64,000 nucleotides of DNA. It comes from Ferruginibacter sp. (GTDB lineage Bacteria > Bacteroidota > Bacteroidia > Chitinophagales > Chitinophagaceae). The position numbers were made by a program, and so were the translations under genes. The stretch's first letter is position 1. Each line of letters opens with the position of its first letter. Positions 5,277 to 51,173 of this stretch are shown here, piece by piece. Where the stretch lies: NCBI GenBank assembly GCA_025362235.1, contig JANYGZ010000095.1, positions 733 through 64,732 of the forward strand. Direction: 5' to 3'. Below the pieces are notes generated by a model that was not told the DNA's origin, did no database searches, and saw nothing but the letters and a program-made list of their open reading frames with translations.

Positions 5277-5296
5277 CCCTTCGACAAGCTCAGGGA
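5277..5296. repeat. Solo copy of GIY-YIG-associated hairpin repeat
   Basis: CCCTTCGACAAGCTCAGGGA begins at the base after the rplE stop; matches CTTCGAC-N2/3-GCTCAG copies at 49378-49874. Confidence 0.7.
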
Positions 5297-48240: not shown

Positions 48241-49806
48241 TTAAGAAAGCATAGGACTTGCAACAACTTTTACCGTATGCTTTATCCGGTTTGCCTGGTG
48301 TATCAATTCCTGTTTTTCTTTACTTAGAATGGTAATATGACCCATCTTCCTACCAGGCCTTGTTTCTTTTTTGCCATAAATATGGACAAAAACATTTTCA
48401 ATTTGTAAAATTTCATTCAGGCCTTCGTACTGCACAGTACCGGAAAATCCATCGGCGCCCACTAAATTCACGATTGCTGCAGGCAATATATGTTCAGTAC
48501 TCCCCAATGGATAACCCAGCATAATTCTCCATAACATATCAAACTGCGAAGAGAAATTTGCTTCAATAGTATGATGCCCGCTGTTATGTACCCTTGGAGC
48601 AGTTTCATTTACAAAAACATTATCCTCCATATCTACAAAAAGTTCAACTGCAAAAATACCTGCACTGTTTAAATACTTTACCACTTTCATTGCAATGGCT
48701 TCCACTTTCCACAAAACTTTTTCGGGCAAATCAGCAGGGCTTATCTGGTATTCCAATAAATTTAATCTTTTATCAAACAGCATATCTACAGCAGGGTATA
48801 CAGCAGTTTCTCCTTTATCATTTACAGCCACAATCACTGAAATTTCTTTTTTAATTTTCACCATTTTTTCCAATACAGAAGGTGCATCAAATCCCTTTTC
48901 AAGATCTTCTTTTGTTTTAAGGATTTCAACGCCTCTTCCATCATAACCTCCCAGGCCTAATTTGTGTACTGCAGGCAAAAAATTTCCCTGTTTTTTTAGT
49001 GCAGCTAAATTCTCTGTTATAATAAAATCACTGGTCGGTATTTCATGATTTTTATAAAATTGCTTTTGTAAAATTTTATTTTTTATAATTTTTAAAGCCG
49101 CAGGATTTGGATAGATTTTTACTCCTTCATTTTGAAGCTTTTCAAGGGCATCAGTATTTACACTTTCTATTTCAATAGTTAGCGTATCAAGGCCTTTCCC
49201 AAAATTATATACGTCATCAAAATTGGCAATATCACCCTTAATAAAATGATTGCACAAATGTGCTGAAGGGCATTCGCTGTCATTTTCCATAACAAAAGTT
49301 TCCACGGGGTAATTGGCCCCTGCTTGTAATAACATCCTTCCAAGTTGCCCCCCGCCTAATATTCCTGCTTTTGGCTGCCCTGAGCGGAGTCGAAGGGGGG
49401 TATTTGTTGGTTGAGCGGAGTCGGGACCTTTTTCCAAGTTATAGTATTTATGGTGTGATAAATTATTGCATTGCGAAAGTAACCGAAGCTTATGAAAATT
49501 GCCCTGTATTAATGCTTCTTTCTTTGATCTGGACCAACCTTTAATTTGTACTTCTCTTTCTGTAGCATCTTTTAAAAACGGAATTGTTTCGTAATATTTT
49601 AATACCAGTGGCCTTCTTTTAAAAGTATAACATGTTTCATAAACACCATTTACATGTTCTTCAAATCTTCTTATCAGGTCATCCGTAAGACCGGTATAAA
49701 AGCTACCATCGTTGCATAAAATTATATACAAATAATAGGCTTCCTGACGGGTGTTATAAAGCATGGTGCAAAATAATTCTTTATTACCACTTTTAAACTC
49801 ACCCAT
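48241..49806 (-). CDS. purK: GIY-YIG nuclease::PurK (N5-CAIR synthetase) in-frame fusion
   Basis: GIY-YIG motifs YLYI..YTG..RR..H..E at 49737-49540; PurK from KAGILGGGQLGRM at 49371, 376 aa, NETAPRVHNSGH, RPGRKMGH; no stop or ATG between domains; start (49806, 49764 or TTG 49848) uncertain. Confidence 0.85.
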   Translation of the reverse strand: MGEFKSGNKELFCTMLYNTRQEAYYLYIILCNDGSFYTGLTDDLIRRFEEHVNGVYETCYTFKRRPLVLKYYETIPFLKDATEREVQIKGWSRSKKEALIQGNFHKLRLLSQCNNLSHHKYYNLEKGPDSAQPTNTPLRLRSGQPKAGILGGGQLGRMLLQAGANYPVETFVMENDSECPSAHLCNHFIKGDIANFDDVYNFGKGLDTLTIEIESVNTDALEKLQNEGVKIYPNPAALKIIKNKILQKQFYKNHEIPTSDFIITENLAALKKQGNFLPAVHKLGLGGYDGRGVEILKTKEDLEKGFDAPSVLEKMVKIKKEISVIVAVNDKGETAVYPAVDMLFDKRLNLLEYQISPADLPEKVLWKVEAIAMKVVKYLNSAGIFAVELFVDMEDNVFVNETAPRVHNSGHHTIEANFSSQFDMLWRIMLGYPLGSTEHILPAAIVNLVGADGFSGTVQYEGLNEILQIENVFVHIYGKKETRPGRKMGHITILSKEKQELIHQANRIKHTVKVVASPMLS

Positions 49807-49874
49807 TTTTCGACTCCTGCATCCTTCGGCTACGCTCAGGATTGGCAAAAATATCCTTCGACTTCGCTCAGGAC
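49378..49874. mobile_element. GIY-YIG cassette flanked by inverted hairpin repeats
   Basis: Left copies CCCTGAGCGGAGTCGAAGGG (49378-49397), GGTTGAGCGGAGTCGGGACC (49409-49428); right inverted copies ATCCTTCGGCTACGCTCAGGAT (49821-49842), ATCCTTCGACTTCGCTCAGGAC (49853-49874); partial TTTCGACTCC (49808-49817). Confidence 0.7.
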
Positions 49875-50039
49875 TATTTACCTTCGTTATAAGATATGCT
49901 TCCCGATTATCCTCATAAAAGATTTTTTGACAAGCGCAATTGCTATACTTTGCTTTTGCTTGCCCTTGCTATGGGTTCGTGATATTGTTGAATGATTTTT
50001 GATAAACAATAATACAATTACGAATTTAATAATTACAAA

Positions 50040-51173
50040 ATGGCAACTTTCACAAGTCAACCCAATGCATTAATTAATACCCCAAACGATTTCCTTCCTT
50101 TACTAGGCACTGATTATGTAGAATTTTATGTAGGTAATGCAAAACAAGCTGCACATTTTTATAAAACAGCTTTTGGATTTCAATCGCTGGCTTATGCCGG
50201 TCCTGAAACTGGTATGAAAGATAAAGTGAGTTATGTTATCAGGCAGAATAAATTAACTTTTGTACTAACAACCCCATTACGTAGTGATAACCCTATTGCA
50301 GATCATATTTACAGGCATGGTGATGGCGTAAAATTTTTAGCTTTAAAAGTTATTGACGCTACTGCCGCATGGAAAGAAACAACAGAACGTGGCGGTAAGA
50401 GCTATATGGAACCAACCATATTAAATGATAATAACGGTAAAGTAGTAATAAGCGGCATACATACTTACGGAGAAACCGTGCATTTGTTTATAGAAAAAGA
50501 AAATTACAATGGACTGTTTATGCCTGGCTTTATACAGTGGAAATCAGATTACAATCCTTCACCAACTGGCTTGTTATATGTAGATCATTGCGTGGGTAAT
50601 GTGGGTTGGAACCAGATGAACACATGGGTAAAATTTTATGAAGAAGTTATGGGGTTTAAAAATATCCTCACATTCGATGATAAAGACATATCTACAGAAT
50701 ATTCTGCCCTGATGAGTAAGGTAATGAGTAATGGAAATGGATTTGTAAAATTTCCTATTAACGAGCCGGCAGAAGGAAAAAAGAAAAGCCAGGTAGAAGA
50801 ATACCTTGATTTTTATAATGGAGAGGGGGTGCAACATGTTGCCATAGCTACAGCAGATATTGTAAAAACAGTTAAAGATTTAAAAAGCCGCGGAATTGAA
50901 TTTTTAAAAATCCCTTATAGTTATTACGAAAATATATTGGATAGGGTGGGTAAAATAGACGAAGACCTTGAACCATTAAGTGAATTGGGAATATTGATAG
51001 ATAGAGACGAAGAAGGATACCTGTTACAGATATTCAGTAAACCTTTACAAGACAGGCCCACATTGTTTTTTGAAATTATTCAACGGAAAGGAGCAAAGAG
51101 TTTTGGTAAAGGAAATTTTAAAGCCTTATTTGAAGCTTTAGAAAAGGAACAAGCGGCAAGAGGGAATTTATAA
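50040..51173 (+). CDS. hppD: 4-hydroxyphenylpyruvate dioxygenase
   Basis: DHCVGN, EGVQHVA, FFEIIQRKG..FGKGNFKALFE. Confidence 0.98.
   Translation: MATFTSQPNALINTPNDFLPLLGTDYVEFYVGNAKQAAHFYKTAFGFQSLAYAGPETGMKDKVSYVIRQNKLTFVLTTPLRSDNPIADHIYRHGDGVKFLALKVIDATAAWKETTERGGKSYMEPTILNDNNGKVVISGIHTYGETVHLFIEKENYNGLFMPGFIQWKSDYNPSPTGLLYVDHCVGNVGWNQMNTWVKFYEEVMGFKNILTFDDKDISTEYSALMSKVMSNGNGFVKFPINEPAEGKKKSQVEEYLDFYNGEGVQHVAIATADIVKTVKDLKSRGIEFLKIPYSYYENILDRVGKIDEDLEPLSELGILIDRDEEGYLLQIFSKPLQDRPTLFFEIIQRKGAKSFGKGNFKALFEALEKEQAARGNL

Follow-up and report, generated by a model that had tools for sequence, protein, structure and literature searches.

The locus described here raises the question of what a small nuclease gene bracketed by inverted short repeats is, a mobile element run by its own enzyme, as an earlier note made from the sequence alone had proposed, or a resident of the chromosome. 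It lies at positions 49378-49874 of a 64,000-nt stretch of DNA from Ferruginibacter sp. (the window, to which all coordinates refer) and encodes a GIY-YIG nuclease that runs, without a stop codon, in frame into purK, which the earlier note had missed. We found that the repeat, a small hairpin, and this GIY-YIG clade are real partners, and the segment is probably a resident nuclease-plus-hairpin module that has been vertically inherited, is fused to PurK and has an activity like that of SsnA, a small GIY-YIG nuclease of Neisseria meningitidis. The window's own genome (4.33 Mb) is referred to as G000, and the other G, L and P numbers denote the genomes, loci and proteins of relatives, for which 41 related genomes were used.

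The repeat unit of 18-20 nt is present in four copies around the GIY-YIG gene, two on each side and inverted, all of which were located as the earlier note had described them, and the outermost copies, U1 and D2, were indeed complementary at 17 of 18 positions. The repeat pattern given in that note matched three times in the window, against 0.00 expected from 100 shuffles. The parts of the locus are as follows.

49854-49874, minus strand: hairpin U1, outer upstream copy, (A)GTCC-TGAGCGAAGTCGAA-GGA(T), sense to the gene and with a GTC tag; its unit CCTGAGCGAAGTCGAAGG is at 49855-49872
49822-49841, minus strand: hairpin U2, inner upstream copy, TCC-TGAGCGTAGCCGAA-GGA, sense; its unit CCTGAGCGTAGCCGAAGG is at 49823-49840
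49444-49764, minus strand: GIY-YIG nuclease domain (Pfam PF01541), codons 1-107 of the fused frame, from the ATG at 49764
49435-49437, minus strand: in-frame TTG (L of ...YNLEKG), candidate internal start of PurK
49409-49428, plus strand: hairpin D1, inner downstream copy, GGT-TGAGCGGAGTCGG-GACC, antisense; degenerate unit GGTTGAGCGGAGTCGGGACC; translated as the linker GPDSAQP
49378-49397, plus strand: hairpin D2, outer downstream copy, CCC-TGAGCGGAGTCGAA-GGG, antisense; its unit CCTGAGCGGAGTCGAAGG is at 49379-49396; translated as the linker PLRLRSG and adjoining the PurK N-terminus
48241-49365, minus strand: PurK portion of the fused frame, from GILGGGQLGRM to the stop codon; N5-carboxyaminoimidazole ribonucleotide synthase

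The assignment of the gene to the GIY-YIG nucleases was confirmed by a score of 52.5 bits against Pfam PF01541 (cut-off, 22.6), and the catalytic residues Y13, Y23, R33, H37, and E71 were intact in the window protein, the first four being invariant and E71 nearly invariant in our alignment A3. The comparison with NCBIfam returned only a sub-threshold match to a group I intron endonuclease (TIGR01453, 14.3 bits against a cut-off of 56). In the PDB profile search, the top matches were UPF0213 proteins, BH0048 (1zg2; E 2.7e-22) and EF2693 (1ywl; E 3.8e-19), and no chain named SsnA was among the results. Unfused orthologues are single-domain proteins of 112 aa with their own stop codon, being 69-73% identical to the window nuclease, and the C-terminal extension typical of the clade, IKGWSRxKKxALI...LSHHKY, is present in the window protein before it continues into PurK. 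G000 has one gene copy of this clade.

To characterize the partnership, a scan of reference genomes was used, in which at least 584 members of the clade were found in many phyla, and locus statistics were determined for the best 80, with hairpins being counted at a stem of at least 3 bp and regarded as near when within 350 nt of the gene. The hairpin density was 3.34/kb near the gene and 0.10/kb farther away, a 32-fold enrichment, and the flank enrichment in homologues that the earlier note had suggested as a check is thus present. At least one hairpin copy was found in 66 of the 80 loci and copies on both sides in 44. The nearest upstream hairpin was sense in 42 loci and antisense in 13, and the nearest downstream hairpin was antisense in 47 and sense in 6; the window arrangement, sense upstream and antisense downstream, matches the majority. 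Among the 41 related genomes, the protein was patchy, with matches in 20. The core pattern of the hairpin was present in every close-homologue locus (L009-L017, L029, and L030), whereas neither the loci of distant GIY-YIG paralogues nor 22 control loci with purK and without the gene contained it. When the core length (13 or 14 nt) was mapped on the protein tree, 11 changes were needed, against 21.7 ± 2.0 after shuffling (0 of 1000 as low); this test, which is inflated by relatedness, points towards co-variation of protein and repeat, in line with the co-evolution that the earlier note had named as a further check.

The structure of the hairpin was examined in an alignment of 27 copies from G000 and relatives. 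The 14-nt core was invariant, TGAGCG-N-AG-Y-CGAA (TGAGCGNAGYCGAA), and the outer stems varied from copy to copy yet stayed complementary (tcc/gga, ccc/ggg, ggt/acc, catgc/gcatg, and gctggt/accagc). The three inner stem pairs were 100% paired, with 9-11 double substitutions each, and the stem covariation score was 0.72, against 0.22 for shuffled sequences (0 of 500 as high) and 0.08-0.23 for slid controls. In some homologue loci, the core was longer, consisting of TGAG, an inner stem-loop, and CGAA. The repeat unit is thus best regarded as consisting of an outer stem, an internal loop formed by TGAG/GAA, and an inner mini-hairpin. In many copies, the stem is also preceded by a GTC(A) tag, and the hairpins in relatives fold at -5.7 to -8 kcal/mol. 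A permissive Rfam scan of 49200-50100 gave two chance-level snoRNA matches and no known RNA family. A role of the window copies as a terminator or stable hairpin was rejected, with folding no better than that of shuffles and the U-tract being absent.

Two observations on individual hairpins were made besides. At L066 2372-2415, an insertion of ~20 nt, itself a small hairpin (CCCGTAAAAGACGGG), is nested in the second downstream hairpin and interrupts its core. At L082 2300-2500, from a Ferruginibacter metagenome-assembled genome, six or more copies of the hairpin follow each other in tandem, spaced at 22 nt, on the upstream side of the fused gene (CAGTCCTGAGCGAAGTCGAA).

The numbers of hairpins differed greatly among genomes. 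G000 contained 6 matches at up to three mismatches and about nine hairpins with a looser core pattern, and a genome-wide REP in G000 was therefore rejected, with about nine copies in 4.33 Mb. Core matches numbered 210 in G009, 150 in G028, and 135 in G012, compared with 2-8 for the controls (2 in G012 and 8 in G009). In G012, two gene copies at different loci are homologous only between inverted ends, CTGTCAGYCTGAGCTTGTCGAAGRCGG and its reverse complement, and there are many gene-less (+,-) hairpin pairs ~40 nt apart and tandem arrays of the 14-nt type; the gene-less pairs look like miniature derivatives. Genes from Burkholderiales, Sulfuricurvum, and Geobacteraceae share similarity at the DNA level that ends at the downstream hairpin, which shows that sister units have spread horizontally and crossed phyla. 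From such sequences, we infer mobility of hairpin-gene-hairpin units. As for a transposase, the earlier note had seen none in sight, and this holds beside the hairpins: genes of the Y1/HUH type (Y1_Tnp, PF01797) are present elsewhere in the genome, as in all eight genomes checked, G000 included, and no hairpin of G000 lies within 4 kb of one of them. The Y1_Tnp counts also do not track hairpins, with seven Y1_Tnp matches (four above the Pfam cut-off) and nine hairpin-pattern matches in G016 and three and 210 matches, respectively, in G009. A Y1/HUH transposase as the mover was thus rejected, the genes being present and not associated with the hairpins.

The concept of a nuclease with its own repeats has been published. 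Small GIY-YIG nucleases named Ssn have hairpin repeats of their own on the flanks of the gene, which they cleave in the form of single-stranded DNA (ssDNA) (Chenal et al, 2025; Nat Commun, PMC11893778). SsnA of N. meningitidis binds its flanking hairpin only as ssDNA and in one orientation, and cuts it a few nucleotides away; Ssn cleavage is site-specific in ssDNA beside the hairpin, double-stranded DNA and RNA not being cut, and the repeat-gene-repeat arrangement was likened by the authors to insertion sequences and REP/RAYT (PMC11893778). Ssn proteins were defined as single-domain proteins of less than 150 aa that belong to CDD cd10448 or match SsnA (CAX49033.1) by blastp at E<1e-10 with a coverage of at least 75%, having repeats on both sides, and the SRM search sequence for the repeats was HGTCWYN(0-2)YYVSBRHN(0-5)WNVSBRGN(0-2)RNCYNB (PMC11893778). 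The nuclease-repeat concept is therefore not undescribed, and the earlier note's claim of an undescribed system does not stand. Bacteroidota and UPF0213 are not mentioned in the Ssn paper, supplements aside (PMC11893778), which was the only paper in the literature searched to contain 'cd10448', and six motif strings had no match in the searchable literature. The window system is like Ssn in that unfused orthologues (112 aa) are small single-domain GIY-YIG proteins, the gene is flanked on both sides by a short hairpin repeat of which tens to hundreds of copies can also be scattered over a genome, the type of repeat goes with the clade of the protein, and many copies have a GTC(A) tag before the stem. 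It differs in that the window protein, at 507 aa, exceeds the 150-aa limit and is fused to PurK, the core is conserved and the stem variable, in contrast to the conserved stem in the NTS repeat of Ssn, the repeats lie outside the SRM pattern, the nearest solved relatives are UPF0213 proteins, and G000 has only about nine hairpins. As judged from the PDB profile and the repeat pattern, it is an Ssn-like variant, with a UPF0213-like protein clade and hairpins off the SRM pattern.

Relatives also contain GIY-YIG paralogues with the motif 'FTxKYN...NPxW', some of which are flanked by NTS-like GTCAT hairpins. We take these paralogues to resemble the Ssn type, which would make the window clade a sister branch.

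The closest sequence family is formed by the UPF0213/Slx1-like proteins, BH0048 and EF2693, which are likewise bare catalytic domains of ~100 aa and to which E. coli YhbQ presumably belongs; the window protein differs by the C-terminal extension of its clade and by its continuation into PurK. No repeat association or substrate was given in the PDB entry names of the UPF0213 matches, and, to our knowledge, UPF0213 proteins have solved structures and no known function or repeat association. Like REP/BIME-RAYT systems, this system has an enzyme gene between inverted copies of a hairpin that is amplified in genomes, tandem and inverted dimers, and a long vertical persistence as a single-copy gene; unlike RAYT, the enzyme is a hydrolytic GIY-YIG nuclease rather than an HUH/Y1 transposase, with the Y1_Tnp genes being apart from the hairpins, and, unlike in REPtrons, the repeat is unamplified in G000, with amplification in the relatives G009, G028, and G012. 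As to the features of insertion sequences, the observations differ between genomes: homology bounded by terminal inverted repeats (TIRs) and multiple copies were seen in G012 and across phyla, and in G000 there is a single copy, with no target-site duplication and no clean junction in the cassette-less purK loci. Furthermore, short tagged hairpins are known as CGTC-tagged palindromic repeats from Proteobacteria, Bacteroidetes, Chlorobi, and other phyla, and are reported to have no dedicated transposase (Di Nocera et al, 2013; by Di Nocera, De Gregorio & Rocco; PMC3733652). Their (C/T)GTC tag resembles the GTC(A) tag here, and their families were defined by a stem and loop consensus, with 'GIY' being absent from the paper (PMC3733652).

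The age of the window copy was evaluated by comparison with its neighbors. The order hppD-GIY-YIG-purK was found in Lacibacter cauensis and in two other assemblies, and the identity between G000 and Lacibacter was 68% for PurK, 69% for GIY-YIG, and 78% for HppD. The nonsynonymous divergence (dN; Nei-Gojobori estimates, as for the synonymous divergence, dS) of GIY-YIG was close to that of PurK in every pair, with respective values of 0.073 and 0.064 for G000 versus L082, 0.127 and 0.122 for G000 versus L083, and 0.261 and 0.248 for G000 versus Lacibacter. The dN/dS of GIY-YIG was 0.035-0.087 (G000 versus L082-L084), and this strong purifying selection shows that the nuclease domain has a function at the protein level beyond providing an open frame into PurK. 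The hairpins are located at orthologous positions, some with equal stems (downstream GGT/ACC and CCC/GGG), despite saturated synonymous sites: an orthologue of U1 is at the equivalent position in G013, L063, and L065 (U1 is included in alignment A2), orthologues of D1 with the identical GGT/ACC stem are in L063, and those of D2 with the CCC/GGG stem are in G013, L063, and L065. By these comparisons, the window copy is old, vertically inherited, and not currently mobile; because of the synteny and the co-divergence with purK and hppD to Lacibacter, and its fusion to purK, it is not regarded as a live mobile element. The cassette is absent in most genomes of the same genus, among which G016, G011, and G001 have a plain purK (ATG AAA AAA GCC GGA...) with neither cassette nor hairpin. 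A comparison with the cassette-less purK loci of G016, G011, and G001 showed neither a target-site duplication nor a clean empty site; beyond the coding sequence, the upstream regions of cassette-less relatives could not be aligned with that of G000.

The fused open reading frame (ORF) at 48241-49848 comprises 535 aa from a TTG, or 507 aa from the ATG at 49764, and encodes GIY-YIG and then PurK, which has the domains PF22660 (preATP-grasp), PF02222 (ATP-grasp), and PF17769 (PurK_C) above their cut-offs and is 68-79% identical to the PurK of relatives. No ATG, GTG, or TTG is present between hairpin D2 and the PurK motif GILGGGQLGRM. The missing stop codon in G000 rests on the assembly and on four other genomes with an equally open frame, the fused frame being open in G000, L082, L083, L084, and P0002, with linkers of ~20-45 aa; that these differ in length and sequence argues for a need to read through. 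The fusion is secondary because the unfused orthologues are single-domain proteins. The order in Lacibacter, L063, and L066 is the nuclease stop codon, two antisense hairpins, a TAnnTTTG box, which we take to be the -7 consensus of Bacteroidota, and the purK ATG 4-6 nt farther on, with a third antisense hairpin within the first part of the purK coding sequence (in Lacibacter and L066 at codons 3-8, and later in the longer N-terminal extension of L063). In G000, a segment of about 70 nt with the purK promoter and ATG is gone, the second hairpin abuts the PurK N-terminus, and the sequence is 3 nt shorter than that of L063 where the stop codon lies. The G013 sequence ...STTLRAGILGGG matches Lacibacter SSTTLRIGILGGG / MNSSTTLRIGILGGG, as is expected if the second and third antisense hairpin copies recombined. 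In the DNA of G013, the nuclease is a pseudogene with five stops, and purK is intact and in frame with a retained TTG (...DLEK...); in that of G024, only the last third of the GIY-YIG domain is kept, with purK intact and the in-frame TTG retained; and P0093, an annotated product of 163 aa from another Ferruginibacter assembly, consists of the last third of GIY-YIG and the PurK N-terminus. By comparison with these, the TTG at the end of the nuclease domain may serve as the PurK start in the window too.

Based on these findings, the following course may be proposed. A module consisting of a UPF0213/Slx1-like single-domain GIY-YIG gene bracketed by cognate DNA hairpins, often GTC(A)-tagged, with a covarying outer stem and a conserved core of TGAG, mini stem-loop, and GAA, would have occupied the interval from hppD to purK in a forerunner of the Ferruginibacter- and Lacibacter-like Chitinophagaceae, from which it has descended vertically while being kept by purifying selection. 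Ferruginibacter-like genomes then lost the nuclease stop codon and also the ~70 nt with the purK promoter and ATG; for the loss of this segment, the likeliest cause would be recombination of two antisense hairpins, of which one lay within the purK 5' end. What results is the 507-aa GIY-YIG::PurK frame, with a linker translated from the two downstream hairpins, and PurK would be made as the fusion or from the in-frame TTG. By analogy with SsnA, the nuclease most likely acts on the TGAG...GAA hairpins as SsnA does on its own, binding the folded hairpin in ssDNA and nicking beside it. At the level of the family, nuclease activity or hairpin recombination would account for the spread of hairpin-gene-hairpin units and gene-less pairs. 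The data thus show the anatomy, the covariation of the hairpins, the association of gene and repeat, vertical descent, selection, the fusion, and the horizontal spread of sister units, and from them we infer the enzymatic activity, biological role, and mobilisation mechanism.

Several observations weigh against this explanation. The four hairpins of the window, with outer stems of 3-4 bp, fold at -0.6 to -2.6 kcal/mol, no better than shuffled sequences, and may be worn relics or may need protein to fold. The SRM pattern had no match within 500 nt of the module, one in G000 against seven for the reversed control, none in five representative copies from relatives, and one in 80 homologue loci, and the nearest solved relatives of the window protein are UPF0213 proteins, as stated above. 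G016, in the same genus, has hppD-purK synteny with neither cassette nor hairpin, which would indicate clean loss or a more complex history, and the recombination route to the fusion is a reconstruction from comparisons. In G009, which has the most hairpins and whose assembly is 80% complete, no close homologue of the nuclease was found, only a distant GIY-YIG match at a contig edge. Moreover, with its ~9 hairpins, G000 is unlikely to use the system across the whole genome in the way proposed for Neisseria; with so few, the role is probably local or residual.

These points have to be considered together with the alternatives. The one closest to the original proposal is an autonomous minimal transposon, a counterpart of IS200/IS605 or REP/RAYT with the GIY-YIG protein as the sole 'transposase' and the inverted hairpins as ends, of which the window copy would be active now or was recently. 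It could account for the TIR-like layout in relatives, where homology ends at the inverted hairpins, for the gene-less pairs and the copy-number bursts in G012, G028, and G009, for the patchy gene, and for the close sequences in different phyla. We consider it improbable because the copy in G000 is single and fused to purK, keeps its synteny across genera with a dN equal to that of PurK, and shows neither a target-site duplication nor a clean empty site; at the family level, we also know of no strand-transfer chemistry for a hydrolytic nuclease. Of the REP/RAYT-like element run by a GIY-YIG enzyme, as envisaged in the earlier note, the gene-repeat partnership and the inverted units in relatives are supported; the window copy is fixed and fused to purK. 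The occupation of an equal site in Ferruginibacter-like genomes, Lacibacter, and other Chitinophagaceae, together with the many cassette-less genomes of the genus and the pseudogene (G013) and truncated (G024) stages, could be explained by a free-standing homing endonuclease with the purK 5' end as its target, which would enter alleles without the cassette anew whenever DNA is taken up. Recurrent transfer would not be expected, however, to leave a GIY-YIG divergence that equals PurK divergence in every pair. The bare catalytic domain without the DNA-binding modules of I-TevI/Seg-type GIY-YIG enzymes and the sister genes at many unrelated sites, always with hairpins, also count against this alternative, and its probability is very small.

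The remaining two alternatives separate the hairpins from the nuclease. If the hairpins were host regulatory or structural elements, acting in purK expression or as recombination or replication signals, with the link to the nuclease being secondary, their retention at orthologous positions, the copy inside the purK 5' coding region where purK is separate, and solo copies near gene starts would be explained. The fixed pattern of sense upstream and antisense downstream around the nuclease in many phyla with varied neighbors would not, and the lack of an Rfam match, the lack of a U-tract, and window stems too weak for terminators also render this explanation unlikely. If, on the other hand, the hairpins were REP/MITE-like repeats moved in trans, for example, by a Y1/HUH transposase, the GIY-YIG gene would be a passenger, and the presence of Y1_Tnp genes in all genomes checked is consistent with this; the distance of more than 4 kb between the hairpins of G000 and any Y1_Tnp gene, Y1_Tnp counts unrelated to hairpin counts (G016 and G009), and the clade-specific 32-fold association and the co-variation of core type, which would not be expected for a passenger, make it quite improbable. 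The resident, vertically inherited module fused to PurK is the explanation that we prefer.

A broader view is that the TGAG...GAA hairpins and the UPF0213-like nuclease constitute a second large Ssn-like branch, overlooked by the published search pattern, in which the bare nuclease would mobilise hairpin-gene-hairpin units of ~400 bp and gene-less pairs via ssDNA, the window copy being domesticated and fixed and having taken over the translation of purK, an essential biosynthetic gene; this may be possible, and we put it forward only tentatively, with some doubt. If it is true, few self-contained mobile units would be smaller, and these units would stand beside REP/RAYT and IS200/IS605 as their GIY-YIG counterparts. 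If the function proposed above holds, the Ssn-type partnership would extend to a UPF0213-like clade of at least 584 members in many phyla, with a core-conserved hairpin, a testable substrate would be available for UPF0213 proteins, and new specificities among ssDNA cutters could be of biotechnological interest. The purK locus also represents a natural series of module ageing, from a separate gene through an in-frame fusion that supplies the start of purK and a pseudogene or relic N-terminal extension to absence, in which the hairpin copies are likely recombination substrates. With respect to annotation, purK of G000 lacks a separate start codon, and it would be wrong to split the 535-aa ORF or to label it as a frameshift.

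Three further features are located around the module or elsewhere in the window.

49846-49853, minus strand: -7-like motif TATTTTTG in the U1-U2 spacer, a perfect fit to TAnnTTTG and a candidate promoter box
49769-49776, minus strand: -7-like box TTATTTTG, 4 nt before the GIY-YIG ATG, conserved in L083 and L084
5277-5295, minus strand: solo hairpin CCCTGAGCTTGTCGAAGGG with a 13-nt core, CCC-TGAGCTTGTCGAA-GGG, ~20 nt upstream of a gene start

The first of these is the -7 motif that the earlier note had placed between the upstream copies, and the spacer in which it lies is partly conserved, being similar (ATTTTTGCCA) in L082 and L083 and degenerate in G013. The solo copy at 5277, reported in the same note, is real and is a 13-nt-core variant of the same hairpin superfamily. 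A TAnnTTTG box was observed 4-6 nt upstream of the ATG at separate or cassette-less purK genes (L041, L042, L044, L063, L065, and L066), and its position so near the ATG suggests a leaderless or nearly leaderless mRNA; the box before the GIY-YIG ATG would seem to resemble it. Between U1 and hppD, a 28-codon ORF (MLPDYPHKRFFDKR...) is present at 49896-49982 on the plus strand, with N-terminal codons conserved in G013, G016, G006, L063, and L065, and its product may be a leader peptide or a small protein belonging to the hppD operon.

Small GIY-YIG genes were also observed next to tRNA and transfer-messenger RNA (tmRNA) sequences. In G000, a gene of ~82 aa that belongs to a different clade (G000:C91:136231-136446; L002 1416-1716) is located between two copies of one tRNA 3' end (GGTCACCGGTTCGAATCCGGTATTCTCCACCA), where ARAGORN called an over-long 94-nt 'tRNA-Pro' that overlaps the 3' end of the gene, with the contig end being 84 nt upstream. 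A 74-aa GIY-YIG gene of the same genome (G000:C14:19690-19902; L003) lies directly upstream of the tmRNA gene ssrA (L003 1796-2169); in front of this GIY-YIG gene, ~45 nt from the 5' end of the tmRNA are found a second time (GGGGCTGAC...GACAGCATAGATCTTTGTA), interrupted by a small hairpin. Tandem small GIY-YIG genes were found in G017 (G017:C4:316956-318215; L025 and L034), with four copies at a 340-nt period, and in G003 (G003:C34:7173-7794; L036), with two copies 370 nt apart, and tRNA-like fragments are present between the tandem copies in both genomes.

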